Source: Neocallimastix sp. 'constans' (lineage: Eukaryota). From it: a DNA stretch of 64,000 nt. Made by a program: the position numbers and the translations under genes. The notes beneath the pieces were generated by a model, which saw only the letters and a program-made list of their open reading frames with translations, was not told the DNA's origin and searched no databases. Positions 6,467 to 54,963 of the stretch are shown here, piece by piece (position 1 is the stretch's first letter; each line of letters starts with the position of its first letter). The stretch covers positions 930,001 to 994,000 of the forward strand of contig JBODTK010000011.1 in the NCBI GenBank assembly GCA_050613775.1, given 5' to 3'.

Positions 6467-7009
6467 TGATACGTATCTTTTATATTTAAAGATGTATCTA
6501 AATAATTTTATTTGTTTGGACGTTGTCAGAAGGGAATTATTGACAAAATAAAATATTCTAATAAATATAATAATAACACATAATGTATAAATATAAATAT
6601 ATAATTTAAATGTAAAGATTTATCTTTATTTATTTATTCTTATTTCTTTATTTATTTTTATTACATTATTCTCAATGTTTACAAAAATATAAAAATACAA
6701 GTTATATATTTATTATTATATTTCTCACTAACTATCTAATTATACACTTAATAATTAATATTTATTACTCTATAAACTATTATATTTTCTAATAATAAAC
6801 CTGTTATTTTGAAGTATCTTTATTATATATTTCCGATATTATAACAAAGAACTCCTCGTTTAATTATTAATAAATATGAATTATCAAAATATGTATCTAA
6901 CTATTTAGTCTTATTTAATTATCTACCAATCATTATTAATTTTTAATTTATTACTTTAACTAATTTCTAAAACTATTTCTAATAATGTTTTTAGTGTGGT
7001 ATCGTATTA
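6467..7009. mobile_element. Probable solo LTR L (most distal unit of the stack)
   Basis: TGATACG...CGTATTA terminal inverted repeat (CA end mutated to TA). Begins where homology to the tRNA-2 downstream flank stops. No matching TSD. Confidence 0.6.
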
Positions 7010-7701
7010 GTCGTGATATGAAATAGAAATAAAAACTCTAATTAATAATAAATTTATGTTAATTAAGAAATGTAGTAAAAGCATAAATTTATATATTAAT
7101 CTAGTTTTTATTGTATTTCTTATTAGAAATTAATTTATATATTTTTATTATTTAATTTTAACATTAATGAAAGTAAATTAATATTTATACTTTAATATAG
7201 GAAAACTTTATTGTAGTAAATAATTATAAAAGAGAAAAATATTTAGAAATAGTTTTATTTCTTTGTCCAAGAATAAGAAATAGTAGATTATAATAATTCT
7301 TGAGATCAAAATATGAAAATAAATATTAATTTTAGGAATAAATGTTAGTTTATATTTTTAATAATGATAAGCAAATGTAATTCTTCTAAATAAATAAAAT
7401 TTAAATAAAATTATTTTTATAAAACATATAAATTATATCCCCCAAATAAAGAATATAAACCTTAAAAGAGCCGAACCTGAACTTCGTACTTTATCAATTG
7501 GTAGAGATATCGGTTTCTTTTAAGGGGGGTAAGATACTATAAATTTTACCAAATTTATATTATAAAATTTTAATTAAATATATTAATTTTCATAAGTTAC
7601 CTACTAGTTTTAGTATATTTTTCCTTACTTTCTACTTGATTAAGTAGAAATTTAATTTTAATAATTCACAATTTAAATTAATTCATAGCAACAATATTAA
7701 A

Positions 7702-8400
7702 ATGGATGAACGAGAATCTATAATTCAAGATTTTGGATCTCCTAATGTTTTATTTAATATTTTGAAAAGACTAAAAATTGACGACAATGTAAATATTGCC
7801 GATTTTACTTTTGTGTATAGAAAATTGTATGATTGTCTTCCTACAGAAAATGTTAAGCAAATCACCATCAAGGACTACCTTAATTCCTTGGATATATTAA
7901 GAAATATTACGAAAATGATGGATTGGGAAAATTCAAGAATGTCCTTTAGGAAAACGCTAGAATGTATAAAAGTATTTGTACTATTCTATACAAACATTAG
8001 AAAACACAAAATAAATGATAATTATAAAAATAATCAAGATAATAAAAATAAAGAAATTAATAAATGGGATTATGTCATAGCGGAGTATGAAAAAATTAAT
8101 TCATGTGACAATCAAGTCAAATCGGTGATTCAAATTAATAATTTAAAAGACAATAATAATCAAGAAATTGAAAAAATTATTAAGTTAACAAAATTTTTAA
8201 TATACAAAGGATCAAATAAATTAAATAAAATTTTAAAAAATAAATTTTTAGAATATCATTCATTTTATAAGGCTTATGTAAATATTTCCTTCTTTATAAA
8301 TGAATGTTTCTCAAGATATCAATTAAAATTTTTATTAAAGAAAAATTATTATCAAAAAAAAAAAAAAAAAAAATTTTTTTTATTTAGTTCTTATTATTAA
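7702..8400 (+). CDS. Truncated Gag-derived ORF inside element J
   Basis: LKRLKIDDNVNIADF...ITIKDYLNSL aligns by eye with family C Gag LKALKIKRNETIKGF...ICVDDYLNAI. No knuckle, no pol. Confidence 0.6.
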   Translation: MDERESIIQDFGSPNVLFNILKRLKIDDNVNIADFTFVYRKLYDCLPTENVKQITIKDYLNSLDILRNITKMMDWENSRMSFRKTLECIKVFVLFYTNIRKHKINDNYKNNQDNKNKEINKWDYVIAEYEKINSCDNQVKSVIQINNLKDNNNQEIEKIIKLTKFLIYKGSNKLNKILKNKFLEYHSFYKAYVNISFFINECFSRYQLKFLLKKNYYQKKKKKKFFLFSSYY

Positions 8401-8925
8401 AAGAAGAATTCAAATTTTCATAATAAAAATATTATATATTCTTCTTTACAACTACGATGTAGTTGTAACTAAAGGAGGGAGATATGATATGAAATAGAAA
8501 TAAAAACACTAATTAATAATAAATTTATGTTAATTAAGAAATGTAGTAAAAGCATAAATTTATGTATTAATCTAGTTTTTATTGTATTTCTTATTAGAAA
8601 TTAATTTATATATTTTTATTATTTAATTTTAACATTAATGAAAGTAAATTAATATTTATACTTTAATATAGGAAAACTTTATTATAGTAAATAATTATAA
8701 AAGAGAAAAATATTTAGAAATAGTTTTATTTCTTTGTCCAAGAATAAGAAATAGTAGATTATAATAATTCTTGAGATCAAAATATGAAAATAAATATTAA
8801 TTTTAGGAATAAATGTTAGTTTATATTTTTAATAATGATAAGCAAATGTAATTCTTCTAAATAAATAAAATTTAAATAAAATTATTTTTATAAAACATAA
8901 ATTAAATTATATTCCCCAAATAAAA

Positions 8926-11900
8926 TGTTAAAGTTTTGTGATAATTTGGTCTTAACGATTAGATCAAGATGCCAAATTATAGTAATTAATTAATAATTTA
9001 ATTTTACTCTTTATTTACATATTGTTGTTAGTAAATTTTATAATTAAGTTTTTATTTAAAATATAAATTTTATTTAATCTTAATAATATTTTATTACATT
9101 ATTATTTTATATAATTATTACTATAATTTAAATTACAATAATCCTACAAAGGATTAGTCAAAAGATTTAAACATGTATTTATATAAAATAATTAATCATT
9201 AAAATATTAATTATTAATATGAATATGTAATAGTATTAATATAAGTTTGATATTGATAATATAAACTAAGATAATAATATAAATATTTAATATAAATAAA
9301 ATATAAGAATATAATATTTTCTAAATATTATATTTTATAATGTAGAAATTAATTTAATGACAATCACATGTCTACATTATTTAATATATATTAATTTCAA
9401 TATGTTAATAATATTTAGTAATTAGTTGGCCTAGACTATTTCCTAAATATTTTAATAATAACTATTATATTATTAATTATTAATATTGAAATTCAAATAA
9501 CTGAATTATTGAAATTGAAATTGAATTGAAATTCAGTTATTATCTTAACAATGCCCTTCCACAAAAGTCGGATTCCAGACGATTTGTGTATCATTGTTAA
9601 AAAAAATTTTAAATTTATTACAGAAAAATTTTTAATTTTTTAAAGTTATTAAGGAATTAAAAGGTCACTTGAATCCTTTGGAGAAGACATTTTAAGTGAC
9701 AATTTCATGAAATTTGAAATTTGTCAAAATTTATTAAAATTAAAATTTTATTATAAAATTCAATATTTTTAAATATGTTGGTACTGATTTTAATATATAT
9801 TCCCTTGTAAATTTTTGAAATTGAAATTTTGAAATTAAATTGAAATTAACATTTCAATTTTTACCATTAACTATGAAATTTTTGAAAATTTTAAAAATAT
9901 AATGTATAATAAATATATTAAAATATAAAATTAATATTAAATCGTTGAATATTTAATTTTTATTAAATTTTGAAATTTCGTAATGTGAAATTTTTAAATG
10001 TCGAAATTTGAAATTTTAAAATTTTTAATTTTTAATTTTCTAAATTCTGAAATTGTAATTGAAAATTTTATCAATTTAATTATTGAATATATTTTATCAA
10101 TATAACTTATTGAATATATTATAATATTCAATTTAATATATTATTAATCTTTGATAATTATGAAAGCGTCCTTATCATAATTATCACAAAATAATACTAT
10201 AAGAAAAGCGTCTTTCTCTATATAATATTAGATCAGTTCTAATAAGATATTGTTGAATTTTAAATTATAAGTACAATAAAATTATACTTTATTATTAAAT
10301 TTTAACTAGTATTAATTTAATAACTATATAAATCTTAAAATTTTAATTATAACTCTTGTAGAGAATATTATTAAATGTAAAATAAGGGAAAAGTTGATTG
10401 TTTTCAACTGTTTAATTATAATATAATTAATGTTTTTGATTTTAAAGAAAAATTGTTAATTTCAAATATTGATTCCTACTGAATTTTTGAATTGTTTTTG
10501 TATTTATTGTAATTAAATATTTAATTTTATTAAATATAACTGTTCGTTTTTTTTTTTTTTTTGTTTTTAAAAAAAAAAAAAAACAATATAACTGTAAAGA
10601 TTTGGATATTTATATAAAGAAATAGAAATTTTAGTTTGATATAATTATTTATCATAGAATATAAAAAATGTAAATTATAATTGAATATATCTTTAGTGCA
10701 TTATTAATTAAAATAGTAAGTCAATTTTTTGAACTGAATGAATTTTTTATTCCCATTACTGGTGGGGAAAAATCAGATTCATGTGAATTTGCTCTTATTC
10801 CTTTTTTAATTTGAAAAAAAAATAAATATTAATTTTTGAAAAGAAAATACTGCAACTAATAGATTTGGATTGAATTTATTATATGTATTTTTATTATATT
10901 ATTTCTTTAATTTTAATTTTGGTTTAGTTTTCATTTTATTATTTCCACTAACTTTATTAGACTTTATTTTTTCTTTTTTGTGATTGCTACCTTTAATTGT
11001 ATTTGATTCTTCGTTAGAGTCATTTTTACTGTGTCTTGTAGTTTCTTCGTAGGATTCCTTGTCAGGAAGTTCAGATTTTGTGATGAGATTTATGTCATAA
11101 TTAATTCATTATTATTTTTATTAATGTTGTTTTCATTAATATTAACTTCTTTCTGTCTTTTATTAGGAATTTCTTCTTTTAAAAATATCATAGACTTATC
11201 AACCTGTTCAAAATTAGAAATGTTCTGATTAATTTGTAATATTAATTTTTCAATTTGACATAAAGCTAACTTAGCACTTCTGAAGTCTATTGATTCGTTT
11301 AGCATTGATTTTGTTACAACGACTTTCTGAGAGTAGACGACCTGTTTTGCTTTGTTCATCTCTGATATCTTCGATTTTATTTTCTTCTTCATCTTGTGAA
11401 TAAATTCATTATATTCTTCGATAGTAACAAATTCTTCTTTTGGTAGCTTTAATATATCATTACTTGTTAATGATATATTAGGATCGGATCTAATTGTTGT
11501 GGACATCTTGAGGTAATTGATAGATTGTTGGTAGGATTATTGTTAAAGTTTTTGGGTTAGTATCCTTGTACGTAGCTAGATACAAATTACGAGCGCTATC
11601 TCTTAAACGGGATTTAATAAAGTTAATTTTGATATCTTCTGTAGCTTCTGAATTTGGATATGTTTTAAAAGTATCTTCACAAAGTTGACAGAATAGATCA
11701 GTTTCTTTAGTATCTCCAGAGAAAAATCCAGGTTCAAGAACTTGTTGTAAACGGTTTGAAAAAGCATTCCTCATAATAACATCATTGTCATCATCACGTC
11801 TAGTAGTGGTAGATACATTATCCTCTTAAGTTTGACTAGTAAAAGGAATATCATTTGTAGCAATATTTATATTTAACTTTTCATCTAAAATTTTTGTTAA

Positions 11901-12844
11901 ATTAGATAATTGATTAATAATATTTTTATTATCTTTGTAAAGTGTATAAAGTTTTTTTTGTAAGTCCTTGTTATATTCATTAAAATCTTCTTTTAATAAA
12001 AAACTATCATTAACAGAAGAAGCCAATTCGGATACAGTAACTTGGGCGTCAGACCTTAATTTATTAACTTCTGACATTGGAGCAATGTCAGCCCATACAT
12101 TATTGTAAAAAGACATATTTAAGTAGTAACCAAAACTAGGGTAAGGTTATTGTTAAAATTAAGATATAAAATAGCTTTATAATTACTAACGTTACTAGGT
12201 TAATATGTTGAATTATATATTAATAATTCAACAATAATTAATTAATAATAAAATAATAATTAAAATAAAATAAGTTAAATAATTAATTTATTTAAACACT
12301 TAATATTTAATGAATAATTTAAACAATAATTTATTTGAAGATTTACGAAATATTTATTTATTTAAAAGTTGAATTATTAGTATATAATTATTGTAACACA
12401 ATAACCTTACAAAGAACATAAAAGATAGATTTTTACATCTTTCTTTTATACTTTGTAAGTTACATAATAATAGTATTTAATTATAAGATAATAATATAGT
12501 AAAATGAATATTAATAAAATATTAAAATAATAACAATATCGATATGTTTAAAATATTTAATATAATTAAATAAATTTAATTTGTATAATTAATTTGAATA
12601 ATTAAAAATAGTAATTAATATATATGATATAAACATATATATAAACATAATAAATACATGTGACGTCATATGTAAATAATTGAAATTATTAATATAAATC
12701 TTATTTATTAATATTCTCAGAATTATTAGGCCTAAGATAATTCTTTAAATATTAAATAAGAATTTATATTAATTATTAATTAAATGTATATTGAAATATG
12801 AATAACTGAAATTGAGATTTCAATTCAGTTATATAATTTCAACA
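8926..12844 (-). mobile_element. Defective gag-only LTR element with mismatched LTRs (G-type 8926-9550; G'-type 12151-12844), nested in the J LTR
   Basis: TSD TAAAA on both sides. PPT (GGAAGGGCAT on -) beside left LTR, self-priming PBS beside right LTR, gag remnant inside. Confidence 0.8.
11090..12116 (-). pseudogene. gag: Gag pseudogene of Tf1/sushi type
   Basis: ORFs 11826-12116 and 11490-11774 are in frame across a single TAA. Motif EPGFFSGDTKETDLF...KINFIKSRLRDSA resembles B Gag PKVFSGKRNEL. Frameshift into 11090-11506. Confidence 0.72.
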
Positions 12845-12849
12845 TAAAA

Positions 12850-14047
12850 TGTAAAATTAAATTGAGTGTTTAGGTAAGATTCTTACTATATCTTTCCTAG
12901 TTTGGGTTAAATTGGTCAGGTCAAGATGTTTTTTATTAATTATAACAATTTAATTAAATTTAAATAATAAATAGCACACACAAAGTTTTATAATTAAGAT
13001 TTCAATATTTAAGATTTATGTTTTATTAGAACTTTATTTAATATATATTTTAATAATAAAATTTTAACTAAGATTAATATAAAAAATTATTTATTGTTAT
13101 AATTAATTTATTAACTTTATGTTAATACATTAAATTAAATTAATAATCTTACAAAGAATTCAAAATATGGAATTTCAAATCCTTTTTATACTAAACTAAA
13201 ATAATAATTACCAATATAATTAAATAATACATTTTAATCTTAATATATTCATACATGTATATAAACTATATAAAATATAATAATAAAATAATATTGATAA
13301 GAACCTTTTAATAAATTAACTATATAAATTATTCATAAAACAATTTAATAATAAAACTAATTTAATAATCAAATATAAAATAAAATAAAATAAAATATTA
13401 AAACTAATTAAAAATTTCTTTCGGAAATCTTTAGAATGATAAAGAATTCCTTAGAATCTTTTAGAAAATAATTGAATAAAAATATATAATAATAAAATAT
13501 ATAAAACTTATAAAACTTATTTAAAATATGATAAAACTATTACTAATAACTAATTCTGTATTTTTAATTAATAATACAAATTAATAATATAATTTCCAAG
13601 TTATGAGATTTATCTAATATAAATTTCTTAATTAATAATTTAGGGTCTTAAATAATTAAATTATATTTTTATATTTAAATATCTTTAAAGTTAAATATCT
13701 CGTTATCTAGTCGACCAATAAGGTTGATTTTAACATATGTTGTAGTTCTCGTCTGTAGCTTTCCAATGAATATAATTTTAGCGGGAAATCACAATATATT
13801 ATTTCCATTATTTGTCGTGTTGTCGTTGTTTTTCTTCATGTTATTTTTATCAAATTCTTAAGGGTTAAATTAAATTAAATTATCTTTAATAAATAAGTCC
13901 AAACCCTTTGGTTTCTAATTCTTTAATGTTTCTAATATTTATTTGTATAATTAAAATCGAATTAAAATAATTTTTGTCAATAACTAAATTAAATTTCAAT
14001 TGATCTAATAGTGAATTTTAACTTCAAATCCACTAGTATTCGTGACA
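12850..14047. mobile_element. Solo LTR-like element K (G-related), nested in the J LTR at the same site as G/G'
   Basis: TG...CA ends, TAAAA on both sides, carries ATAATCTTACAAAG motif related to G and G' LTRs. Confidence 0.68.
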
Positions 14048-14102
14048 TAAAAGAATAAACCTTAAAAGAGCCGAACCTGAACTTCGTACTTTATCAGTTG
14101 AA

Positions 14103-14776
14103 TGGTGCAGGTACACAATAAACTTCAAAAAAAATGAAAATAATATATTAGTTAATAATTTAATTTCACTTTCAGTTTTTTTTATTTTTTAACTCTTCAT
14201 TTTTTATTAAGTATTTTCTTTTTCTTTTATACTTTTTTACTACATGAATTTTATAATAATTTAAATTATTTTAATTCTTATTAGTATAATTATTACATGT
14301 GATTTTATTAATATTTTTTAAAAGTTATTTTAATAATAAAAATATTAATACTAATATAATTAATATTATCTTTAATGACAAAATATTAATAATGATAAAA
14401 TTAAAAAATTTAACAATAAAATTATTGGTAATATTTTTGATAATAATTCTTGAAACAATTTAATATTAATAATAATTAAATATAATAATAAAACAATTTA
14501 ATTAATATAAGATAATAATTATTTAATAATTAGTCATTAATCAATTTAATTAAATAATAATTTTTAAATAATTAGTCATTAATCAATTTAATAAAATAAT
14601 AATTATTTAATAATTAGTCATTAATCAATTTAATTTGATAGTTTATATAATTTTTTTAAATTAAAAATAAAATTTTGGAATTATAAAAATAGTTTAAAAT
14701 ATTTAATACATAAAGTTATTAAACTTAATTATAATTTCCAATAGTATAATATAAATTATTAGTTAGTTCCGTAACA
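14103..14776. mobile_element. Solo LTR N
   Basis: TGGTGC...GTAACA. TSD TGAA/CGA(A). Internal triple repeat ATAATTAGTCATTAATCAATTTAAT. Confidence 0.72.
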
Positions 14777-14779: not shown

Positions 14780-17700
14780 CGTAAGAAACTTAGATAAATT
14801 TATTATAAAATTTATCTATCTTTCTTATTTAATACATTAATTTAATACATTAAATTATTGTATTTATTTTAACCAATAATATTTAATTATTAATTTATAT
14901 ATATTTGATTCTCTTGAGTTCTCTTCGAGAAATCAAGAGTTATTATTTTAGAATTTTTATAATAAATAATAATTCAAATAAAATAATTAATTAATAAACA
15001 AATCCCATTTTAATAAAACATATTTTATAAATATTTGTGTCTTTTATTCCTTTTGTGTTATTGTTTATTATAAACTTTCTATAATAAACTCTATCTTATA
15101 TTTAAGTTAAGTATAATTATTTATTTATATTATTTTATATTTATTTAATTATATTTAATTTTATTTTCTCAAATTAATGTTAATTAGTAATAATTAATGT
15201 TAATTTGTAGTTAAGAAATTATTTATAATTAATTTTATAAGTAATTTCTTACAATAATAACTCTTCTTTGAAAGAGAAAATTTTGGAAATAATATGTTAA
15301 AATAATAATTAAAAAAAAAAATATAAATAAATAAATTTTAAAGCAATTAAAAAACAAATTATATATAAGAATTATATTATATTATTTGCAAAACTTTTTC
15401 TTTCTAATTATATAATTTCATAATATTTATTTCATTATTGTTTACATATTTCCTTTATTTATTTTTGTTTACTTTATTAAAATAATATATACTCACCATT
15501 ATATTCTCTTTTATTTTATTTTATATATCGTCTTTTTATATAATATTATTATATTTATTTATATATAATTAAATTTATACATTATATCTTAAAAAAAAAA
15601 AAAAAATATAATAATAATAATAAAAAAAAATAAAATAAAGCAAACAAATAAACTAACAAGTAAACAAAAACAAAATAACAAAAAACAAAACAACAAAAAA
15701 CAAAACAAAACAATAAAAAACAAAATAAAAAACAAGAAAACAAAAATAAACAAAATAAATTAAATAAATAAATAAATAATTTAAAAAAGATAAGTATTTG
15801 AAATTTTTATTTTTAATAATTAAATAATTTCAAATAATAAATAATTTTAATAATAGTAATAATATAATAATAATAATTATAATAATGATAATATAAATAA
15901 TAAATAAATAAATAAATAACAAATAGTAAGTAATAAATAAATAAATAAATAAATAAATAAAATAATTGTAAATAAATAATAATTTTACATGTAGAATAGT
16001 CAACAGGTGTAACACTAACACCAATAGCAGAAGCCGTTCAATTTAGATTGAATGATAATGCTTTCTGTTAAACCATTTATTATGGTTTATTTGTTGACAA
16101 AATTATAAAATTTAATTATTTAATTTATTTACTAATATATAATTATAAAATAATAAAATAATTAATTATTAATTATATATTTAATTTCTACATATAATAT
16201 TATGAGAGTAATTCTCATATTTGTATATAAACTTATACACTAAAAAATTATAACTAAAATATAATATAAAAATTATAAAATTTTAAATTATTATTTATTT
16301 ATTTATTTAAGTAGATATACATAATATTTATAATATAAAATTATAAATTAATATTATTCATTTGTTTATTGAATAATAAAAATAAATATTATATAAAGTA
16401 AATAAACTAAAAATATGAACTTTTATTTATTTACTGTGTAATAATTAAATTATAAATTATATTTATTTATTTGTTGTATAATTATACATATAAAATATAA
16501 TATAAAAAAAAAAAAAAAAAAAAAAAAAATTATTTATTTATTTAATAAATAATACATATGTATAATTTAAATTATTACTTACTTATTCATCTAATGAATA
16601 ATATAAAGATAATTATAATATAAAATTATAAATTATTATTATTTATTTATTTAATATATATGAAAAATTATATATCATATTCATATAATTTAAAATTCAA
16701 ATTATTATTATTATTTTTATTCATTTAATGAATAATATACAATATATATATATATTGTAAAATTAATTATTATTATTATTATTTATTTATTTATTAATAC
16801 AAAATATATATAATATATAATATAAATTTATAAATTATTGTTAATTTAATTATTTATTTAAAATAAATTTTAATTCAAAATTTAAATTTCAATTTTTTAA
16901 ATTGAAATTGCAATTAAATATTTATTTTAATTTTATTTAAATTTTATTTCTTTTTAATATTTCTTAATTTATTATTTCTTAAATTGTTCTTCTTTCATTG
17001 AACAATTCAGATGAAAAGGAGCAATGTAAGAAATACAAATAAATTTATTAATAATTTATTTACATTTCTTAGTTATTAAAATTTATTTAATTTAATATTT
17101 ATTTATTCATTTAATAATATAGTCATTTTATTTAAATTTATATTTATTTATACATTTAATAATTATATTTATTTTATTTAATTTATAATTATTTATTCAC
17201 TTATATTTATATATTAGTTAGAAAACAATATTAAGGTTTTCCCAAGTTAATTGGTTTTACTTAATATTGATTCATCTAGAGTTTTTCCGCTAATCTTTTC
17301 TCTAGATGTAAAAAAGTTAAGGTTAGCAAAACTTTCAATAAATTATATAATTTTATATTTTTTTGGTTAATTATAATTTTTATTTTAAACTTACTACTTC
17401 TTTTATGATAATGAATTTATACAAATTCATTAAGTAAAGGGAGCAATGTAAGAAACTTAGATAAATTTATTATAAAATTTATCTATCTTTCTTATTTAAT
17501 ACATTAATTTAATACATTAAATTATTGTATTTATTTTAACCAATAATATTTAATTATTAATTTATATATATTTGATTCTCTTGAGTTCTCTTCGAGAAAT
17601 CAAGAGTTATTATTTTAGAATTTTTATAATAAATAATAATTAATAAAATAATTTATTTAATAAAAAGTATTTATGTATTTTGTAATTTAAAGTGTTCTTG

Positions 17701-17907
17701 AAATTTTAGTGTTATTGTTTATTATAAACTTTCTATAATAAACTCTATCTTATATTTAAGTTAAGTATAATTATTTATTTATATTATTTTATATTTATTT
17801 AATTATATTTAATTTTATTTTCTCAAATTAATGTTAATTAGTAACAATTAATGTTAATTTGTAGTTAAGAAATTATTTATAATTAATTTTATAAGTAATT
17901 TCTTACA
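14780..17907 (+). mobile_element. Non-autonomous non-coding LTR element F, empty copy (LTRs 14780-15253 and 17447-17907)
   Basis: Direct-repeat LTRs, PPT AAAGGGAGCAA, self-priming PBS ATAATAACTCTT, TSD CACGA/CACG(A). Inverted homolog at 22706-28866. Confidence 0.88.
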
Positions 17908-18701: not shown

Positions 18702-18939
18702 TGATAAATTTTAGAAATTATCTTAATTTTAATATAGAATTAAAAAGTGATAATTTCAATTTATTTTAATAATAACTGTATAAGTTATTTATGAATTAAA
18801 AAAAATGTTTTATTAAAAATAACACTAAAAATTTGATTTATTAGAACACTTGTTTTCTAATATTTTATTTTATAAATCTTTTATTAAAATTTATTAAACA
18901 TTATAAAATTTAAAAGTGATTATTAAAATTATAAAATTA

Positions 18940-18970
<31 letters not shown>

Positions 18971-39578: not shown

Positions 39579-39583
<5 letters not shown>

Positions 39584-44859: not shown

Positions 44860-44890
<31 letters not shown>

Positions 44891-45056
44891 AATTATTATC
44901 ATTAGTATTATTATAATTATTTTTTATTTTCATAGTATTATTATTTAACTTGGGAGAGTATGTTAAATTTACATATTCTTCATTAATACTATTATTTTTA
45001 TTATAAGTTTGAAGTTTGGTTTGGTTAACGGGAGTTGTCCTTCTCCCATTATTTAG
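39579..45056 (-). CDS. pol: Family C Pol with long Asn-rich inserts (reached by -1 frameshift)
   Basis: FLDSCAS, YIDDLVI, RSDASK, integrase GLDLVGP/TDNGPQF. Frame is open up to the slippery site. Confidence 0.93.
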
Positions 45057-46356
45057 TTTAAATTATTAAAGCTATCTCCATTATTATTATTATTATTTAC
45101 ATTAGCTTTGAAATTACTATTAATATTTGAACTAGTAGTATTAATATCCTGATTTATTCCATTAGAATTTCTATTAAAATTATTATTTCCAGTGGGAATA
45201 TTATTCTCATTAAAATTATTATTATTTCTATTAGCAATATTATTTCCAGTAAATTTATTATTTTTATTAAAGTAATAATTACTACCATTAAAAGAATTAT
45301 TGTAGCCATTTTTATTACTATTATTATAATAATTGTTATATTTATTACTATTATTATTATAATCAAAATTATTATTATAATTATTACCATTATCATTATT
45401 ATTCATATTATAAAGATTATTATTTCTATTACTACCATTATTTTTATTATTAGGACATTCATAAGCTTTATGTCCTACTTGTTTACATGAGTAACACATA
45501 ACTGATTTTCTAGCTTTTGGTTCGTAGTTATTATAGATCTTCTTGTATCATAAGTATTATTTTGTTGAATTTGTTCTACTCCGTGATAATAATTATTATT
45601 ATTATTAAAACTTTTATTTTTATTGTTACTATATCTACCTGGTGTAAACATTCTATTATTGGTGGAGTTTTTATTTATATAACCCATAACATATGATGAC
45701 GCTTGATATGAATTATCTAAATTATTTCCATGTTCTCTTAAGCTCCTATAAATTGGATGATTTAATAAATTGTTACTATTTTTATTTATGTTGTTTTGAT
45801 ATACCATAACATTCTGAGAATTTTTGTTTGTTATAGTTCGTACTTCAGCTTTTTCTGCACGTTCTGCTACTTCGAACGCTTCTGTTAATGTTTTACAGTT
45901 GGCCAAAATTACTTGAGAATGTACATATACCCTATCATGTATAGCATTTAAATAATCATCGACACATATTAATTTTTTATATTCCAAGTCAAGTCGATGA
46001 TAAAGAGTTAAATAATTATAATTAAATCCTTTAATTGTTTCATTTCTTTTTATTTTTAAGGCCTTTAAAATTGAACACTTATCATTTTGAGTAATTTCTA
46101 AATAATCTTCAATGGCTCTCTGGATTTCTTTATATGAGGGAAACCTTTTAACATTATTTCTTGTAGTACATAAAGATTTTAAAAGGTTTTTTATGTCAGC
46201 CTCTACTGCGTTCTTTACCCAAATAAAAATTCTGTTTGGTTCCTCAATGTTGTAAATTTCCATAACATTTTTGAAATCTTCTATCCAAGAATCTATGTCC
46301 TTACCATAATTTGCTAAGTATGGTAAGTCTCTTCTAATTTTCGAAGCGTCCGCCAT
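45053..46356 (-). CDS. gag: Family C Gag, split by a 1-nt frameshift near 45530-45550
   Basis: ORFs 45475-46356 and 45053-45499; the second carries CYSCKQVGHKAYEC. Confidence 0.82.
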
Positions 46357-46442
46357 TTATCTAATTATTATTTTAATTTGAAATTATATTCTTATATACT
46401 TTTACGAGTATAATAATATTATTTTTATTATTGTTATTATTA

Positions 46443-46492
<50 letters not shown>

Positions 46493-47044
46493 TCTTATTT
46501 TATATACTATTACTAAAATATTACTATTATTAAAATATTATTTATTATTATTAATTATTAATTCACTATTACTAAAATATTATTTATTATTATTAATTAT
46601 TACTTAATTCACTATTACTAAAATATTATTTATTATTATTAATTATTACTTAATTCACTATTACTAAAATATCATTTATTATTATTAATTATTACTTAAT
46701 TCACCATTACTAAAATATTATTTATTATTATTATTAAAATATTATCTATTATTTTTTTTTTTTTCTAAATATTATCACATATACTATTAATAAAATATTA
46801 TTTAATATTAATTTTTATACTAAACTATTACTACTTTTTATTATAATATCATTTCTTAATTAAAGGTTTATTCGTTTTTATACTGGTCCGAATTCCCAGT
46901 TGTCTTTAATTACTAATAAAGATGATAATAAAAAAAATTAACTATACTAATAATAATAATTAAAGACTTATTCGTTTTTATTCTGGTTCGAACTCCCAGT
47001 TACCTTTAATTATTATTTAATAATAATCATAATAATTTTAGGCG

Positions 47045-47076
<32 letters not shown>

Positions 47077-48507
47077 TTTATATATTACTATTATAAAAAA
47101 TTAATTATTTAATTTTAATTTAATATTAATTATTTAATTGTCTTTATTTTTTAAAAAGTAAATATCAATATAAATATAAATTTCATAATATTCTTGGTTT
47201 GCACGCCCGGATTCTCCACCATTTTTGATACGATATTTTATTAAATACCGTATATGTTAGTTGGGCGTTTGTGCAAAAGGGAATTACTCCAAGAATATTA
47301 TATTACAATAATTATATTTACTTTTTATTTATTTATCTTTTATTATTTTATTTATTATATTTTATCATAAAAAAAATACATGTTTTATTATTATTCCTTA
47401 AAAATAAAGAAAATATTTATTTATAAATTATTTTCATAATTATATTTTTTACTAATTTTATAAATTTTATTTATCGAAACACTAAAATTAATTAATAAAT
47501 ATAAATATTCATAACTTTTTACTTATAACTATTAATTCATATTGTTTAACATTATTTAAAAATTATTTTAATATTAACATCAATTTAATTAAACATTCAA
47601 TCTCCGTTATAATTAATATAACTAATTTTACTATATTATCAACAATTCTTTTAATATTTTTAATATTATTATTTAATTTAATATTTTAATAATTAATAAT
47701 AATAAATTATCTTTAATAATATATTAATAATATATTTTAAGATTCATTATATAAAATTAATTTTTAATAAATATTTATATTAATAATTTTTCTAAATAAT
47801 TTTTCTATTATTTTCTATTATTTTTACTGGACATGCATCACGTGACAAATGTTGATTATTATCTTAATTTAGAATTTACTTCTAAAAGTGATAATAATTT
47901 GTCAATTAATAGGGTAGTTATTAACACAAAGATGTTAATTAAAACACTACAGTTTAAAATAAGAAAAGAATATTTGTTTTTTTTTTTATAATAAAACTTT
48001 ATTTATCAATATAAAATTGTACTTTTTATTATTTTGAATATTTATATTCTTAATAAAAAGTATTTAAAATAAATGAGAATAAAAGAAAATAATTTATTAA
48101 AACTTAAATTTTAAATTTTTAATTCTTGAATTCTGATTTTTTATTTTTAAAGAAATATTTACATGTTTTTATATTTTTCTTTTAAGTTTAAATTATTTAA
48201 AATAAAACTATATAATTATTTTAAGTAAACACTTTTAAGATAAAATAAACAATTTTGTTATTATTAATAAGTTTCTTTTTAATTAATATTAATATCAATT
48301 TAAACTGAGATTTAATTTAAAATCGTTAAAGTAAAATAAAAGAATAATTTAATATAAAATACATTGTTCTTTAAATTAAAATAATATTTATTTAATAATT
48401 TTAAATCTTTTAATTTATTTTTATTAAAATATTATTTTATAATTATCAATAACTAATGAAGAGGGTTATTATTCCATTTTATTGATTTTTCTTAATTTAT
48501 AATTTGG

Positions 48508-51500
48508 TTATTTATCAATTCCTCCACCATCAGATTGAACTTCGTCTCTTGAAGTTGTAATATTTTCTTCTCTTATTGTATATGGATAAACATTTTTAAT
48601 ATGTACATTTCTTGAAAGTAATTTTCCAGTTTGTGGGTCTTCTAATACTACTGTGTTGAATTTTGGTTCTTTTACAACTCTAAATGGTCCGTAAAAGTAA
48701 GGGTCTAACTTTGTCCTGTTAATTAATCTTATCATCACATAGTCTCCAATTTTGTATTGTTTCTTTAAGGCTTTATTGAAACCTATTCTGTGTTCCCAAT
48801 ATTTATTAGCATATTCTGAATATCCTATTGCTTCTTTTACCCATTTGTAATGTCTTAAAAATCTTCGAAAATTAAATTCGTCTTCTGTTTCTCCTTCTTC
48901 TTGGTGAATATCCGGAAACATGATTTCCATTGGCCAAGTATCCCTTCTTCCATATAATAGTTCAAAACTGCTGAATTTAGTTTTTGAACTTTTTGTTGTT
49001 CTAAGTGCCCATAAGACTGATGGAAGACATTCGTCCCATTCCTGTTCTTCCGTTATTAATAATCGTAATATTTTTCCAATCTCTCTATTTCTGTTTTCTA
49101 TCATTCCATTTGATTGTGGATGGTGTGGTGCAGTAAAATGTACCCATGATCCATATAAATCGATCATCATTTTTGTAATATCCGAAATGAATGAGGATCC
49201 ATTATCTGTTATGATTATTTCTGGTGGTCCATGTCTTGCTATTACTTCTGTTAAAAATTTAATTACCTGTTCTGATTTAATATCTGGTATAGCTTTGGCT
49301 TCTGGCCATTTAGTAAAGTAATCAACTAAAGTAATTATATATTTATTACCTTGTTTTGTGGCTGGTAACGGTCCGATAATATCTAGTCCTACTCTGGTAA
49401 AAGGTTTTTCAATTGGTGTAATATGATCTTCTGTATTTTGTGGTAGTGATTTGGGTCTAAATAGTTGACACTTGTGGCATGATCGAACCCACATTCTAAC
49501 ATCATTCCATATTCCAGGCCAGTAGTATGATTCTAAAATTCTTAAAGTAGTCTTTTCAGCACCTTCATGGCCGACGTTATGAGCTCTATCAATAATATCT
49601 TTCTTATCTTCATCTCTATAAATGACTTTTAAATATAAATCGTTTTTTTTATAATATAAAGTGTTATCTATTATTTGATAATTTTTGCTAAAATATTTTC
49701 TTATACCTTCTGGTAAGTCTAAATCTCTTGGGTTGATATCACTTAAAATAGCATTAATACAATTTGTAACACTCTCATTTTGTTTTGATGGTAATCTAGA
49801 TAAAGCATCTGCGAATATATTAGACTTTCCTTTTTCGTATATTAATTTTATTTTATATTTATTAAATTCTTCTATCCATCTAAAATGTCTATTTTTGGTT
49901 GGTATGCTATTTTCAAAAAAACCTAAAAGTGGTTTATGGTCAGTAATTACTGTTGTTATTTGTTTATTACTTACAATATATTCGCGGAATTTCTTTAAAC
50001 TATAAATAACTGCTAAGCCTTCCAGATCGGTTATAGAGTAATTTTCTTCTGCAGGCTTTAAGGATCTGCTAACACAATAAATTGGATGTTCCAATTTATC
50101 TTCCTCCCGTTGCAAGAGTACACCCCCGATTCCTTTGATAGAAGCATCTGTTCTAATAATGAATGGCCTATTGAAATCAGGAAAGGCAAGTATTGGATCT
50201 TTCAAGAGACAATTTCTTAAATCTTCAAATGCTAAGGTACAATCATTATTCCAATTGTAATTATTATTTTTCTTTAAAAGTTTGAATAGTGGACTAGCTC
50301 TAATAGAAAAGTTTTTTATAAATTTTCTGTAATAACTTACCAAACCAAGAAATGATCTTAATTGAGAAATATTCTTTGGGTTTTCCCATAAGGCAATACT
50401 TTGGACTTTTGATGGTGCAGTTTTTAATCCATCAGCTGTTAGTACATGTCCTAAAACTTCGACTTTTTCTTTAAAAAATTGACACTTTTGTAAATTTATT
50501 GATAAATTATATTTTGAGAATATATCGAATACTAATTTTAAGTGATTTATGTGCTCTTTTAAATTCTTAGAATAAACCACGATATCGTCAATATAGACAA
50601 ATAAGCATTCACCTATTAATGGTAGCAATATCCGATTCATTTCTCGTTGGAATGTCGCTGGCGCATTTGTGAGTCCAAAAGGCATTACTAAAAAATTGTA
50701 ATTTCCAAATTTTGTGGTGAATGATGTTTTCTCGATATCTTTCTTATTCATTGGTATTTGGTGGTAACCAGAAAATAAATCCAATGCGGAAAATATTTTT
50801 GCACCCTTTACTGATGTTACTAATTCGTCAATGAGAGGCAAGGCATAAGAATCTTTTATTGTAATATTATTCAGTTTTCTATAATCAATACACATTCTCC
50901 ATTTTCCATTTTTCTTTTGAACAAGTAATACTGGGAATGCCCATGGTGAATGGGAAGGTTCTATTAGTCCTTTGTTTAATAATGATATTATTTCCTCCTT
51001 AAGAATATTTGAATGTTCCTTTGATAATTTGTACGGTTTTAATTTTATTGGTACATTGGTAGTTGTTATTATATTATGAGGATGCAAATTTGCAGTTGTT
51101 AATTGAGAAAGAGAAGTTGCCATACACTTTTGATTATTTAATATTAAAATTTTAAATTCTTCCTTTATTTCAATTGGTACTTCGTTAATTATTTCATTAA
51201 GAGTATTCATAAATTCATTTTCTTCTTCGTTTGAAATAATAATTGAATTAATTAAAGGTATGTCCTGTTTACTATTAATAATTTCGCTAACTTTAATTAA
51301 ACCTTTATCAGTCTTCTTGTAAATAAAATCATCATCTGGGTCAATTAATAATCTATATTTCTTTTGTATACTTCTTCCTATAATTAAATCATAATAATTA
51401 TTTGTATAGTCTATAATATAAAATTTTTCATTAATAGTTAAATTTTCACTTATTTTTAATTTTATAGTTGTATAATATTGAGTTGGTATTAATGTTCCAT

Positions 51501-52521
51501 CAGCTAGAGCAATGGTAATTGTTTCGTCAGTTTTTACTATGTTATTTAATTCAGTTTTATTAAAACTTTCTAAGGTAATTATATTAATATTTGCACCAGT
51601 ATCAAATAATACTTTAAAAGGTTGGTTATTTATTTCCCCAATGATAATCGGTATATTAAAATTCGCTATTGAACATAAAATTCTTTCTACTCTTGGCTTT
51701 AGACCCTGTTCCAATTCTTTTCTTATTGCTGGACTTGCTGCTAATAGCTGTGCTAAATTAATTTTTGGATAGATTGATTTGATTTCTTCAATAATATTAA
51801 ACTTTTGTTCTTTATCTAATAATTTTATTTCAGTCATATTCCTTTTAGTAATAAATTTTGTTGGCTTATTTTCATTATAATTATCTTTATCTAAATCAAT
51901 TACATTATTTGTTTTTATTTCATTTTTATTTTTATAATTTTCATTATCTTTATTACTATTATCATTTTTATTATCATCATTATTCTTATTATCATAATTA
52001 TTTTTATTATTTTTATTATTTTTATTATTTGTATTATTTGTATTATTTGTATTATTGGTATTATTTGTATTATTTGTATTATTTGTATTATTATCATTAT
52101 TATTACTAATTCCATTACTGTCATTATTATTAATAATACCATCATTACTATGATTATTATTAAGATTTATACTTTCCTCAAGATTATTTTTATTTTCTAT
52201 TTCTTGATTATTATTAGTTTCGTTATTTTCATTCTGGTTGGAGTATTCTTCTTCATTATCATCTATATCCATGGCTCTTCTTCTTTTGTCTCTAATTTCT
52301 CTTTTTTGTTGTTTTACTATTTTAATTTTGGGTTGGTTTAATATTGAAGGTTTAATAATTGATTTATTTGATAATTTTATTTTGGTTTTATTCAATTGAT
52401 TTGAAGTTGTAGTCTTTTTTTTTTGTGCGGCATTAATTGTGTATATGTTATTGTTATTATTGGAATTTATTGTATTTGCAATTTTATTTATATTGGGAGA
52501 TTGCGTACTCCCATTATTTAT
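48508..52521 (-). CDS. pol: Family D Pol (reached by -1 frameshift; stop lies inside the 3' LTR)
   Basis: LFDTGA, YIDDIVV, RTDAS, GLDIIGP/TDNGSSF. Uninterrupted. Confidence 0.95.
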   Translation of the reverse strand: MNNGSTQSPNINKIANTINSNNNNNIYTINAAQKKKTTTSNQLNKTKIKLSNKSIIKPSILNQPKIKIVKQQKREIRDKRRRAMDIDDNEEEYSNQNENNETNNNQEIENKNNLEESINLNNNHSNDGIINNNDSNGISNNNDNNTNNTNNTNNTNNTNNTNNTNNKNNKNNKNNYDNKNNDDNKNDNSNKDNENYKNKNEIKTNNVIDLDKDNYNENKPTKFITKRNMTEIKLLDKEQKFNIIEEIKSIYPKINLAQLLAASPAIRKELEQGLKPRVERILCSIANFNIPIIIGEINNQPFKVLFDTGANINIITLESFNKTELNNIVKTDETITIALADGTLIPTQYYTTIKLKISENLTINEKFYIIDYTNNYYDLIIGRSIQKKYRLLIDPDDDFIYKKTDKGLIKVSEIINSKQDIPLINSIIISNEEENEFMNTLNEIINEVPIEIKEEFKILILNNQKCMATSLSQLTTANLHPHNIITTTNVPIKLKPYKLSKEHSNILKEEIISLLNKGLIEPSHSPWAFPVLLVQKKNGKWRMCIDYRKLNNITIKDSYALPLIDELVTSVKGAKIFSALDLFSGYHQIPMNKKDIEKTSFTTKFGNYNFLVMPFGLTNAPATFQREMNRILLPLIGECLFVYIDDIVVYSKNLKEHINHLKLVFDIFSKYNLSINLQKCQFFKEKVEVLGHVLTADGLKTAPSKVQSIALWENPKNISQLRSFLGLVSYYRKFIKNFSIRASPLFKLLKKNNNYNWNNDCTLAFEDLRNCLLKDPILAFPDFNRPFIIRTDASIKGIGGVLLQREEDKLEHPIYCVSRSLKPAEENYSITDLEGLAVIYSLKKFREYIVSNKQITTVITDHKPLLGFFENSIPTKNRHFRWIEEFNKYKIKLIYEKGKSNIFADALSRLPSKQNESVTNCINAILSDINPRDLDLPEGIRKYFSKNYQIIDNTLYYKKNDLYLKVIYRDEDKKDIIDRAHNVGHEGAEKTTLRILESYYWPGIWNDVRMWVRSCHKCQLFRPKSLPQNTEDHITPIEKPFTRVGLDIIGPLPATKQGNKYIITLVDYFTKWPEAKAIPDIKSEQVIKFLTEVIARHGPPEIIITDNGSSFISDITKMMIDLYGSWVHFTAPHHPQSNGMIENRNREIGKILRLLITEEQEWDECLPSVLWALRTTKSSKTKFSSFELLYGRRDTWPMEIMFPDIHQEEGETEDEFNFRRFLRHYKWVKEAIGYSEYANKYWEHRIGFNKALKKQYKIGDYVMIRLINRTKLDPYFYGPFRVVKEPKFNTVVLEDPQTGKLLSRNVHIKNVYPYTIREENITTSRDEVQSDGGGIDK

Positions 52522-53468
52522 TTTAAACGTTCATCATTTTGTTTAGATTCTGGGCAGTCAACTTCATTATGTCCGATCCTCATACAATTTACGCAAAAAT
52601 TAATTTTTAAGTCGGAGAGCTTTTGTGTTATTTCTTTTATTTCTTCATCATTTATGCTTTGTTTTGCATTATTTCTATTATTATTAGTATTTTTATTTAA
52701 TTGTTCTTTATATTGATAATAATTATTGTACTTATTATTGTAGTTACTATTATAGGATTTATTATTATAAAAATTTTTATTTTGATATCCATACGTTGAA
52801 CTATTAGCGTTATTATTATTTCCTTCCTTATTTTTATTATTTGGAGAATAAAAATTAATATAAGAACTTTCGGATTGCCTTTTTGTAGAATTATGGCTAG
52901 TAGTTTTCTCTTTTGAAGGATTTTTATTTTTATTTTCTTTAATAAGGTTCATAATCTTTTCTTTCTTCGAAGTGATTTTCTGAGCTTCTTCTAAGGTTGT
53001 TGGTTCTTCCTCCATTAAACTTTCGTATATTTTATTCCAATTACGAAAAGCATTTATATAATAAGATGTTACGATAACATCTGAGATTACCACAGTTTTA
53101 CTTATTTGGTTTAGCAATTCAGAGAATCGTATGTCAAAGTCTGTAATTGTTTCATCTTTACGTATAGTAATAGATGAAAGTTCCAGAAGTCTGGAATTCT
53201 TTGACGCAGTTTTCTTATAATACTTTGCTAAATTTGTTAATATAGTATCATATTCATCTGGTATTTTTTTATTTAGAGAATTATAAACTATTGTCCTTGC
53301 AACACCATCTGTTATTGCAATTAAATAATCTATTTTCTCTCTTTCTTCGCTTACTTTAAAAGTAAGACACCAATGTTCGAATGCAAACTTCCATTCATCG
53401 AATGCAACTTTTGTTTTTCCGAGAATGGGAAGTCTGTTGAACGTTATTAATTTTATTTGATTTTCCAT
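52518..53468 (-). CDS. gag: Family D Gag with CCHC knuckle
   Basis: CVNCMRIGHNEVDC; intact 316-aa ORF. Confidence 0.92.
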   Translation of the reverse strand: MENQIKLITFNRLPILGKTKVAFDEWKFAFEHWCLTFKVSEEREKIDYLIAITDGVARTIVYNSLNKKIPDEYDTILTNLAKYYKKTASKNSRLLELSSITIRKDETITDFDIRFSELLNQISKTVVISDVIVTSYYINAFRNWNKIYESLMEEEPTTLEEAQKITSKKEKIMNLIKENKNKNPSKEKTTSHNSTKRQSESSYINFYSPNNKNKEGNNNNANSSTYGYQNKNFYNNKSYNSNYNNKYNNYYQYKEQLNKNTNNNRNNAKQSINDEEIKEITQKLSDLKINFCVNCMRIGHNEVDCPESKQNDERLK

Positions 53469-53553
53469 TTTTTTTTTTTTTTTTATATATTTTTATTTTA
53501 TTTTATTTTACTTATATATGCTACTTTATTGTATCACTATATATGTATATTTA

Positions 53554-53585
<32 letters not shown>

Positions 53586-53819
53586 TTTTTTTTTTTTTTA
53601 TATATATATATTATTTACTTATATTATTTGTATTATTTTACTTATTTATATTTATATTATTTAACTTATTTATATTATTTAACTTATTTATATTATTTAA
53701 CTTATTTTATTATTTTCTTCATTTAATATATATTATCTTTTCTTTGTTTTATATATAAACTAAGATTAATTTTTAATATCTAAAAATTATATATTATTAC
53801 TAGTTCTATAATGGTTATA

Positions 53820-53878
<59 letters not shown>

Positions 53879-54891
53879 TAATAATAATTAATTATAATTT
53901 AATTTACTATATTTTTATTAATTGTGTAACTTATAATTTTTTTTTTTTAAAATAATTATATTAATAATTTTTAAATTAATTATTACATTAATCTATTTTA
54001 ATTAATTTCTGCTAAATCTTTTATAACTATGATTTAATGGTTTTCTTTTATTTATAATTAATTTTTACTTAAGTATTTTACCTCCTTGGGTTTTACATAA
54101 GAATAACTTTAATTACCTCATTGGGTTTTAATTTTTTTTTTTTTTATAGAATAAAGAATTCTACTTACCTCACCGGGCTTAGTTAGGATTCTCCACCAGT
54201 TTGACAAATGTTGATTATTATCTTAATTTAGAATTTACTTCTAAAAGTGATAATAATTTGTCAATTAATAGGGTAGTTATTAACACAAAGATGTTAATTA
54301 AAACACTACAGTTTAAAATAAGAAAAGAATATTTGTTTTTTTTTTTATAATAAAACTTTATTTATCAATATAAAATTGTACTTTTTATTATTTTGAATAT
54401 TTATATTCTTAATAAAAAGTATTTAAAATAAATGAGAATAAAAGAAAATAATTTATTAAAACTTAAATTTTAAATTTTTAATTCTTGAATTCTGATTTTT
54501 TATTTTTAAAGAAATATTTACATGTTTTTATATTTTTCTTTTAAGTTTAAATTATTTAAAATAAAACTATATAATTATTTTAAGTAAACACTTTTAAGAT
54601 AAAATAAACAATTTTGTTATTATTAATAAGTTTCTTTTTAATTAATATTAATATCAATTTAAACTGAGATTTAATTTAAAATCGTTAAAGTAAAATAAAA
54701 GAATAATTTAATATAAAATACATTGTTCTTTAAATTAAAATAATATTTATTTAATAATTTTAAATCTTTTAATTTATTTTTATTAAAATATTATTTTATA
54801 ATTATCAATAACTAATGAAGAGGGTTATTATTCCATTTTATTGATTTTTCTTAATTTATAATTTGGTTATTTATCACACGAAAACAGGTAA

Positions 54892-54963
54892 GGAGGGTTG
54901 GCGCAACGGTAGCGCGTCCGCCTCCAGAGCGGAAGGTTGGGTGTTCGAATCACTCACTCTCCA
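54892..54963 (+). tRNA. trnW: tRNA-Trp (CCA), copy 2
   Basis: Identical to 6287-6358, oligo-T terminator. Confidence 0.96.

Follow-up and report, generated by a model that had tools for sequence, protein, structure and literature searches.

A stack of 21 LTR retrotransposon insertions upstream of one tRNA-Trp gene in a gut fungus, likely built by Pol III-directed integration at a fixed distance

Introduction

Integration next to tRNA genes is usually taken to be the way in which elements of compact genomes reach safe sites. Ty3 of Saccharomyces cerevisiae integrates about 15 nt upstream of the mature tRNA, and the chromodomain of its integrase serves as a ruler on TFIIIB (bioRxiv 2021.07.27.453949). 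Passages on DGLT-A, a Ty3/gypsy element of Dictyostelium, describe an element that inserts 13 to 33 bp (mean 15) ahead of the mature tRNA and has a TGG primer site, many solo LTRs and no chromodomain, with a table note that later insertions at the same tRNA displace earlier ones (PMC5006619; PMC5911963); a further passage reports contact of its RNase H with the TFIIIC subunit Tfc4 (PMC6101501). No stack of comparable depth was found for DGLT-A in these literature passages. Tj1 of Schizosaccharomyces japonicus, a self-priming Ty3/gypsy element, inserts just upstream of tRNA genes (PMC4600332). The windows of the non-LTR elements TRE5 and NLTR-B are 40 to 54 bp and 39 to 64 bp; Ty1 uses nucleosome-set sites further upstream. 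We describe 21 LTR retrotransposon insertions stacked before one tRNA-Trp gene of a gut fungus, a pile that we attribute, with a probability of about 85%, to Pol III-directed integration at a fixed distance.

Materials and Methods

The window is the whole 64,000-nt stretch of Neocallimastix sp. 'constans' DNA that was analysed, and all coordinates are forward-strand positions within it. Target-site duplications (TSDs) were controlled by shifting the unit ends, which gave a 4-nt match in 2.0%. Loose ends were compared with contigs of four runs from other samples, probably other strains (12 of 17 rows listed). Homologue searches at longer lengths gave mostly generic long polyproteins.

Results

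Positions 6467 to 54876 are 99.9% LTR retroelement DNA, and the stack stops 15 nt short of the tRNA-Trp gene (Table 1). Its 21 insertions in about 48 kb, which carry some 15 family labels, comprise 15 top-level abutting units and 6 nested ones. The top-level units occupy 48,351 of 48,410 nt, the remainder being 59 nt of 2- to 9-nt spacers, and once later units are removed, 15 of 15 end 13 to 18 nt from the tRNA. Unit-by-unit removal from right to left restores a single 15-nt target, GTCGAAAACAGGTAA, ahead of the gene. The first-pass annotation had given these coordinates and spacers and had proposed the regeneration of one target plus tRNA, and both hold as written; its estimate of about 13 families gives way to the present count. 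It had also called the stack polarised, which is correct for age and wrong for strand: units occur in both orientations (at least 10 face away from the tRNA and 3 to 5 face it), and strand polarity was rejected.

Apart from two tRNAs, an Rfam search of the window returned nothing. The two tRNA-Trp genes share about 105 nt of downstream DNA, and this homology stops at the start of L. The left gene has the family-A element A0 at 15 nt on a different spacer (ATGT). Host genes 400 nt downstream are intact.

Table 1. Features of the window, proximal to distal within the stack. Distances are to the tRNA, for top-level units after removal of later units.
Feature	Position	Strand	TSD	Distance (nt)	Remarks
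tRNA-Trp(CCA), stack anchor	54892..54963	+			ARAGORN; Rfam RF00005, 65.3 bits
15-nt target spacer	54877..54891	+			first two bases stem from the end of LTR N
D, intact Ty3/gypsy element	47843..54876	-	CACG (4 nt)	15	LTRs 675 nt, 100% identical; gag 52518-53492, pol 48508-52530; TGG primer site
C, full-length Ty3/gypsy, clade of D	38713..47840	-	CGAA (4 nt)	13	LTRs 615 nt, 100% identical; pol 39579-45062; gag split over two frames
E2, intact chromovirus nested in B2	31805..38693	-	5 nt	28 at insertion (putative)	single 1570-aa ORF; C-terminal chromodomain; 11-nt putative self-priming site
B2, solo LTR hosting E2	30811..38703	.	AAACA (5 nt)	18
E1, family E solo LTR nested in B1	29828..30794	-	5 nt	29 (putative)
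B1, solo LTR hosting E1	28871..30806	.	AACAC (5 nt)	17
G solo LTR inside tRNA-facing LTR of F2	28160..28816	+	5 nt	66 (putative)
F2, non-autonomous two-LTR element	22706..28866	-	ACACG (5 nt)	16	putative self-priming site; no pol; 2.35-kb gene piece 23880-26231
H, 326-nt unit	22376..22701	.	CACG	15	tandem repeats plus LTR-type right end; left TG missing
I, solo LTR	20903..22370	.	ACAC	16
G solo LTR within I	21684-22321		not exact	65
F1, family F solo LTR	20428..20899	-	3-nt duplication only	15
A, solo LTR	19463..20424	-	CACG	15	same family as LTR before left tRNA
O, solo LTR akin to D	18702..19458	-	CACG	15	16% substitutions from D, many gaps
M, solo LTR	17912..18697	.	CACG	15
F0, non-autonomous two-LTR element	14780..17907	+	CACGA	15	TSD includes last 2 nt of N
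N, solo LTR	14103..14776	.	CGAA (left copy TGAA)	13
J, non-autonomous two-LTR element	7014..14096	+	GTCG	15	TGG primer site; 250-aa frame; right LTR interrupted at 8925/14053
K in right LTR of J	12850-14047		TAAAA	64 (putative)
G..G' in right LTR of J	8926-12844		TAAAA	64 (putative)	gag remnants
L, most distal solo LTR	6467..7009	.	no match	15	distance in reconstructed site
Second tRNA-Trp, identical to anchor	6287..6358	+
A0, family-A Ty3/gypsy, runs off window	1..6271	-		15 (left tRNA-Trp)	5' LTR 5257-6271, gag 2787-3752, pol broken near 508-532

Exact TSDs of 4 to 5 nt flank 16 of the 21 units: 11 of the 15 top-level units and, at 5 nt, five of the six nested ones, G within I being the inexact case. 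N and J each have a 4-nt TSD with one mismatch, because a single C>T lies in the spacer common to them; F1 shows a duplication of only 3 nt, and L is without a TSD. Insertion order had been read from TSDs that overlap the left neighbour's end, which works for six of the 14 pairs of neighbours (N>F0, F1>I, H>F2, F2>B1, B1>B2, C>D); TSDs alone leave the remaining pairs without an order. From distal to proximal, substitutions between paired LTRs number 4/480, 11/456, 3/469, 5/1001, 0/615 and 0/675. As the first-pass annotation had expected, divergence drops toward the tRNA (rho -0.93, exact p 0.011, n=6; without F0, which is out of order, rho -0.97, p 0.017), and intact elements are proximal, the three pol-intact units being the last three of 21 (chance 7.5e-4). 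D is the youngest unit of the stack.

Insertions fall at three distances from the tRNA, namely 13 to 18 nt, 28 to 29 nt (the chromodomain family E) and 64 to 66 nt (G and K), the last two classes on the assumption that the host unit adjoined the tRNA at insertion time. The proposal that one site was reused thus applies to the 13- to 18-nt class, while the nested units sit at other distances. Nested sites lie in 5 of 5 cases inside the last 50 nt of the host's tRNA-facing end (uniform chance 3.6e-8), and G recurs at 64, 65 and 66 nt in three hosts that are unrelated in sequence and of either orientation. Serial tRNA-anchored insertion, with the youngest unit beside the gene, is supported at the sequence level by the chaining of TSDs, the LTR-divergence gradient, the fixed nested distances, the family-A element 15 nt before the second tRNA and LTR-type ends elsewhere.

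The pol genes of D, C and E2 have the order protease-RT-RNase H-integrase (Pfam) of Ty3/gypsy elements (Metaviridae), and direct LTRs with TG...CA ends, a primer site and a polypurine tract are found in D, C, E2, J and F. One terminal base is altered in the solos L, M and B2 and in F0, and H is without its left end. Two Ty3/gypsy lineages are present, a chromodomain-less gut-fungal clade and predicted self-priming chromoviruses. D and C, of the former, have at most 60 residues after the GPF-type motif and no chromodomain; this tail measures 23 to 63 aa in 75 of 104 motif-bearing relatives, and PF00385 occurs in 2 of 120 search matches, both distant algal. In a tree without DGLT-A among its rows, D and C group with gut-fungal and metagenome sequences. 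The E2 chromodomain (PF00385, 34 bits versus a cut-off of 25.1) has lost two of three cage aromatics in an HP1 alignment, and the E2 integrase is near that of Ty3 (E 8.7e-62). Family E groups by RT/RNase H (100/99) with fungal chromodomain-bearing rows in a tree without named reference elements. Complements of the primer site inside the LTR measure 11 nt in E2, 11 in F0, 12 in F2 and 10 in G', lengths given without a chance control; E, F and G are accordingly classed as predicted self-priming elements of the Tf1/Tj1 type. The primer sites of D, C and A0 match the 3' end of this tRNA-Trp over 9 nt and diverge beyond that; tRNA-Ala may be their primer, which is a guess.

Among the rows listed, three of four tRNA-Trp flanks in contigs of other samples bear an LTR-type end at 13 to 16 nt: a family-I LTR end 13 nt ahead of the gene, on a different spacer, and two further ends at 14 and 16 nt. 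Two of these three resemble window LTRs only over the last 5 to 6 nt. The end of D is followed by a tRNA-like start or, in run X2, by another LTR (three of the five rows behind it are D's own internal junction and uninformative). The D-tRNA junction of the window (54877-54891) and its downstream flank had no cover in the contigs of all four runs, a gap that proves nothing. A metagenome tRNA-Trp locus (two contigs, one locus) showed no LTR end within its 23 to 24 upstream bases, and metagenome contigs gave 0 matches to the D LTR end. In viral contigs, D pol had 0 relatives among 14 candidates, the tRNA pattern had 0 matches, and the clade alignment found five distant loci, none with a tRNA. In the prokaryote genome set, the tRNA pattern again had 0 matches and the clade alignment found 13 loci, 12 of which are short contigs (46 to 81% identity) misbinned into MAGs. 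Across both sets a tRNA accompanied 0 of 18 clade-alignment loci, these being element-internal, and five of the MAGs searched with window positions 14000-33000 gave only low-complexity matches and a lectin-like gene.

Discussion

Elements might have been drawn to existing LTR ends or to a short CACG/ACA sequence, the tRNA being only the first landing place. CACG is present in seven top-level spacers, six TSDs cut into a neighbour's LTR end, the nested G and E sites are just as constant in distance from the host's right end (49 to 50 and 10 to 12 nt), and in run X2 another LTR directly follows the D end. However, CACG is not ancestral, and a common sequence motif as target was rejected, since J, N and A0 used GTCG, CGAA and ATGT. 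Nested sites always lie at the host's tRNA-facing end, whatever its sequence or orientation, sister LTRs whose ends are free in the stack have no such inserts, the age gradient is directed at the tRNA, and family I is found 13 nt ahead of another tRNA-Trp with a different spacer. We regard attraction to LTR ends or motifs as very unlikely.

It is highly improbable that the region is an assembly chimera joined by way of repeated LTRs and the duplicate tRNA gene: wrong joins between LTRs would disrupt TSD pairs, which are exact in 16 of 21 units and across elements of up to 9 kb, and the spacer bases are inherited as a consistent chain. The flanking of the stack by two identical tRNA genes, whose shared DNA ends exactly at L, the missing TSD of L and the uncovered D-tRNA junction do point that way, but the runs are probably other strains, and lack of cover is no proof. 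A mis-join at the left edge alone, at L, is possible and would leave the stack unaffected. Scarcely credible is a heterochromatic or centromere-like graveyard in which insertion was untargeted and selection spared only copies upstream of the tRNA. E bears a chromodomain, and S. japonicus centromeres hold clustered tRNA genes and LTR elements, yet untargeted insertion would scatter nested units over 48 kb, and all five nested sites lie at most 50 nt from the tRNA-facing end of their host; the abutment of 15 units within 2 to 9 nt and the intact host genes nearby also argue against it.

Under Pol III-directed integration, several Ty3/gypsy families would be anchored to the RNA polymerase III apparatus of the tRNA-Trp gene. 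Insertion at a fixed distance means that each newcomer displaces older units away from the gene, and the internal tRNA promoter would outlast each insertion, so that the target is re-created indefinitely. The 13- to 18-nt class may integrate at the transcription start site through contact with TFIIIB or TFIIIC. The D/C clade needs another tether than the Ty3-type chromodomain because it is without one; our best guess, offered with reserve, is an RNase H/integrase-TFIIIC contact like that of DGLT-A. In family E the diverged chromodomain may serve as a ruler, for G and K the site might be the upstream border of TFIIIB or the first nucleosome, and LTR-LTR recombination probably reduces older copies quickly to solo LTRs.

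The host of the stack has a large, repeat-rich fungal genome, whereas that of DGLT-A is Dictyostelium; tRNA targeting is met here in a repeat-rich gut fungus. We tentatively suggest that a guild of LTR retrotransposons aimed at Pol III arose independently in anaerobic gut fungi, out of two Ty3/gypsy lineages, and occupies three nucleotide-precise niches upstream of tRNA genes that trace the Pol III footprint, and that most tRNA genes anchor stacks, which would drive much repeat growth and be readable as dated, strain-specific transposon logs. With new copies joining at one end, a stack records the relative order of many families; it also offers a direct test of the speed of decay to solo LTRs, and strain markers. 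The intact elements D, C and E2, whose LTRs are identical or nearly so, are candidates for site-specific integration tools in fungi that are difficult to engineer.

The distances in the stack agree with those published for Ty3, DGLT-A and Tj1. D and C insert 15 and 13 nt upstream of the mature tRNA, as Ty3 does, but lack its TFIIIB-binding integrase chromodomain; E shares with Ty3 an integrase ending in a chromodomain and lands at 28 to 29 nt. DGLT-A resembles D and C in its 13- to 33-bp window, the absence of a chromodomain and the TGG primer site, and differs in having one ORF, where gag and pol of D and A0 lie in distinct frames that overlap. E2, F and G' share 10 to 12 nt of self-priming complementarity with Tj1, which has one fixed orientation and a window 1 to 10 bp from the start site, whereas both orientations are seen for F and G, and G and K sit at 64 to 66 nt. 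Skipper-2 of dictyostelids, a tRNA-associated chromovirus, resembles E2 in that its chromodomain is missing the first and third cage aromatics, but it lies downstream of tRNA genes and E upstream. G and K differ from TRE5, NLTR-B and Ty1 as LTR elements whose TSDs measure 5 nt and whose window here spans only 3 nt. The stack had been likened to a CRISPR-like time record, and its ordered, one-ended growth bears this out as an analogy only: CRISPR arrays have constant repeats, acquired spacers, acquisition genes and guide RNAs, while these units are self-inserting LTR elements and Rfam finds only the tRNAs, so a CRISPR-like function was rejected. Integration directed by tRNA genes is itself known from Ty3, DGLT-A and Tj1; the nested classes at 28 to 29 and 64 to 66 nt, which the table of the 2018 review does not hold as separate precise LTR-element windows upstream of tRNA genes, are new here.

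The window is very AT-rich, and the named relatives of its expansin-like genes identify the host as an anaerobic gut fungus, probably Neocallimastix. The right-hand one of the two identical tRNA-Trp(CCA) genes anchors a stack of 21 LTR retroelement units. Of the stack's 48,410 nt, 48,351 are taken up by 15 abutting units (distal to tRNA proximal: L, J, N, F0, M, O, A, F1, I, H, F2, B1, B2, C, and D), whose 14 spacers sum to 59 nt; six further units are nested (G..G' and K in J, G in I, G in F2, E1 in B1, and E2 in B2). Intact pol frames were found in D, C, and E2, with the domain order protease-RT-RNase H-integrase and, in E2, an additional chromodomain (Pfam). J, F0, and F2 are nonautonomous elements with two LTRs, gag remnants lie inside G..G', and the remaining units are solo LTRs (longest open frame, ≤78 aa). 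The units do not share one orientation: those pointing away from the tRNA are D, C, E1, E2, A, O, F1, F2, and two G copies, and those pointing toward it are J, F0, one G, and probably B1 and B2.

Features of the window and observations on them
Feature	Position(s)	Observation
Left tRNA-Trp(CCA)	6287-6358	
Anchor tRNA-Trp(CCA)	54892-54963	
tRNA-Trp plus shared downstream DNA	6287-6466; 54892-55067	~105 nt downstream common to both genes
Stack	6467-54876	21 units
A0 leader (family-A Ty3/gypsy element)	4790-5240	long CTT/GAA-type repeat region straight after primer site
G and G'	8926-12844	flank one gag-remnant element; 68-70% similar across roughly half of their length
Internal tract of F elements	17014-17446; 23183-23610	LTR-like start with decayed polypurine tract; remnant of a third LTR that F0 and F2 both inherited
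H	22376-22701	mostly five copies of ~59-nt repeat; LTR-type end at right only, yet clean 4-nt duplication
Gene piece in F2	23880-26231	2.35 kb, within TA run; weakly matches bulb-type lectin; frames of 165, 419, 100, and 100 aa
Expansin-like genes	55354-59104; 59654-59991	tandem, just downstream of tRNA; 96% alike over 1.27 kb; third fragment also present; best named relative Neocallimastix (91%), then Piromyces, Anaeromyces, Orpinomyces
Polyubiquitin gene	61045-61740	three repeats; residue 20 F instead of S in one

When units are removed starting at the right, a single 15-nt sequence before the tRNA is regenerated. Target-site duplications are exact in 16 of 21 units (4 to 5 nt in 11/15 top-level units; 5 nt in 5/6 nested units), set against matches in 2.0% of a control with shifted ends. 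N and J carry 4-nt duplications with one mismatch, both accounted for by one C>T; that of F1 is 3 nt, and L has none. After removal of the units to its right, every top-level unit ends 13 to 18 nt from the tRNA. The abutting units, the one regenerated target, and the exact duplications show that the stacked LTR insertions described in the first-pass annotation are real. Captures are recorded in the spacer (CA from the end of N, later one A each from H, F2, and B1). The insertion order proposed earlier is fixed by duplication overlap with the left neighbor in 6 of 14 pairs; for the others (e.g., M, O, and A, all on CACG), it assumes growth at the tRNA side.

The 15-nt spacers upstream of the two tRNA-Trp genes differ at 5 positions, and homology between the loci ends exactly at the start of L; with the shared downstream DNA, this is suggestive of either duplication or deletion between LTRs at the left edge. 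The gene piece in F2, lacking from its sister F0, has a 73% relative inside a 1,314-aa frame (contig G005:C121) and is likely a host-gene capture. The LTRs of J differ by 0.8% despite the dissimilarity of G and G' within it, and G..G' likely arose by recombination between two related insertions in the same place.

Assuming that nested units inserted while their hosts adjoined the tRNA, the insertion sites were 64 nt (G..G' and K), 65 nt (G in I), 66 nt (G in F2), 29 nt (E1), and 28 nt (E2) from the gene. The hosts of the three G copies show no sequence relationship and are not all oriented alike, and all five nested sites lie ≤50 nt from the tRNA-facing ends of hosts of 0.8 to 5.5 kb (uniform chance, 3.6e-8). 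As an internal control, this favors the tRNA as the ruler for nested insertions and puts each of them ahead of the following top-level insertion in time. Attraction to LTR ends is also compatible with these distances, since they are equally constant when measured from the host's right end. The nested distance classes go beyond the first-pass reading, which was largely right: serial growth at the tRNA, probably Pol III-targeted, stands, the single site gives way, under the above assumption, to three windows (13 to 18, 28 to 29, and 64 to 66 nt), and the likeness to CRISPR extends to one-ended growth and nothing further.

LTR-pair substitutions, distal to proximal, were 4/480 (J), 11/456 (F0), 3/469 (F2), 5/1,001 (E2), 0/615 (C), and 0/675 (D). 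Divergence thus declines along the stack (rho, −0.93; exact one-sided P = 0.011), on six LTR pairs whose values conversion between LTRs could distort; omitting F0, whose LTRs may be recombinant, gives a rho of −0.97 (P = 0.017). D, C, and E2, the intact elements, hold the three final places among the 21 units (chance, 7.5e-4), in line with the first-pass expectation of decayed units distally and full-length ones proximally. Because all LTR-pair divergences are low, we infer fast stack growth and fast solo formation.

A family-A end lies 15 nt before the left tRNA-Trp, with a different spacer. In contigs from 4 of 24 public runs, with 12 of 17 loose-end rows listed, each of the three listed rows upstream of a tRNA-Trp finishes with an LTR-type end, located 13, 14, and 16 nt from the gene, respectively; the first matches the end of family I exactly over 16 nt, and the others share only the last 5 to 6 nt with window LTRs. 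An LTR-type end was absent from a fourth flank (metagenome contigs; 23 to 24 upstream nt visible), giving 3/4 flanks versus a 4.9% background (4.5e-4). Two rows were informative for the D end: one has a tRNA-like start ~13 nt on (by eye; 4-contig consensus; agreement, 0.7), and the other has another LTR start after 3 nt; three further rows reflect the junction inside D itself. The run contigs leave the window's own junction uncovered, and hence the assembly is without read confirmation. Loci L003 to L014 are gut-fungal retrotransposon contigs misbinned in five archaeal/bacterial MAGs serving as species representatives.

The RT/RNase H tree comprised 63 rows (3 from the window, 24 named hits, and 36 unnamed hits, every third taken); it excluded A0, because its frame is broken, and lacked Ty3, Tj1, and DGLT-A. 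D and C belonged to a clade of 42 rows that also contains Orpinomyces and metagenome sequences (support, 100/100), and E2 grouped with fungal rows bearing a chromodomain (100/99). Members of the D/C clade duplicate 4 nt of target, carry TGG primer sites, and have integrases with short tails (23 to 63 aa in 75/104 relatives having the motif); a chromodomain occurred in 2/120 hits, both distant. Duplications of E, F, and G are mostly 5 nt, and complementarity of 10 to 12 nt makes these families putative self-priming elements. Against Ty3 integrase, E2 scored an E value of 8.7e-62 and D scored 6.3e-19.

The stack is probably a form of the Pol III targeting known from other systems and stands out for its depth, its two lineages on one gene, and its three precise windows. 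Literature searches listed no report of gut-fungal tRNA targeting; a 2024 paper by Navaratna et al. about anaerobic-fungal LTR elements (cf. PMC13728883) may bear on novelty. Because tRNA promoters are internal, upstream insertion spares the gene (PMC5911963); it would also re-create the target. From sequence, contacts with the Pol III complex may be proposed for all three windows. Ty3 integrase contacts TFIIIB with the chromodomain as ruler (bioRxiv 2021.07.27.453949), and DGLT-A uses the same window as Ty3 via RNase H-Tfc4 (PMC6101501). D and C differ from Ty3 in having no chromodomain and are for that reason likened to DGLT-A in geometry, a likeness that does not imply membership; they differ from DGLT-A in its single-ORF feature. 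In the E2 chromodomain, the first and third cage aromatics are missing, as they are in that of Skipper-2 (PMC5006619); a table footnote of that paper also records older insertions displaced at the same tRNA.
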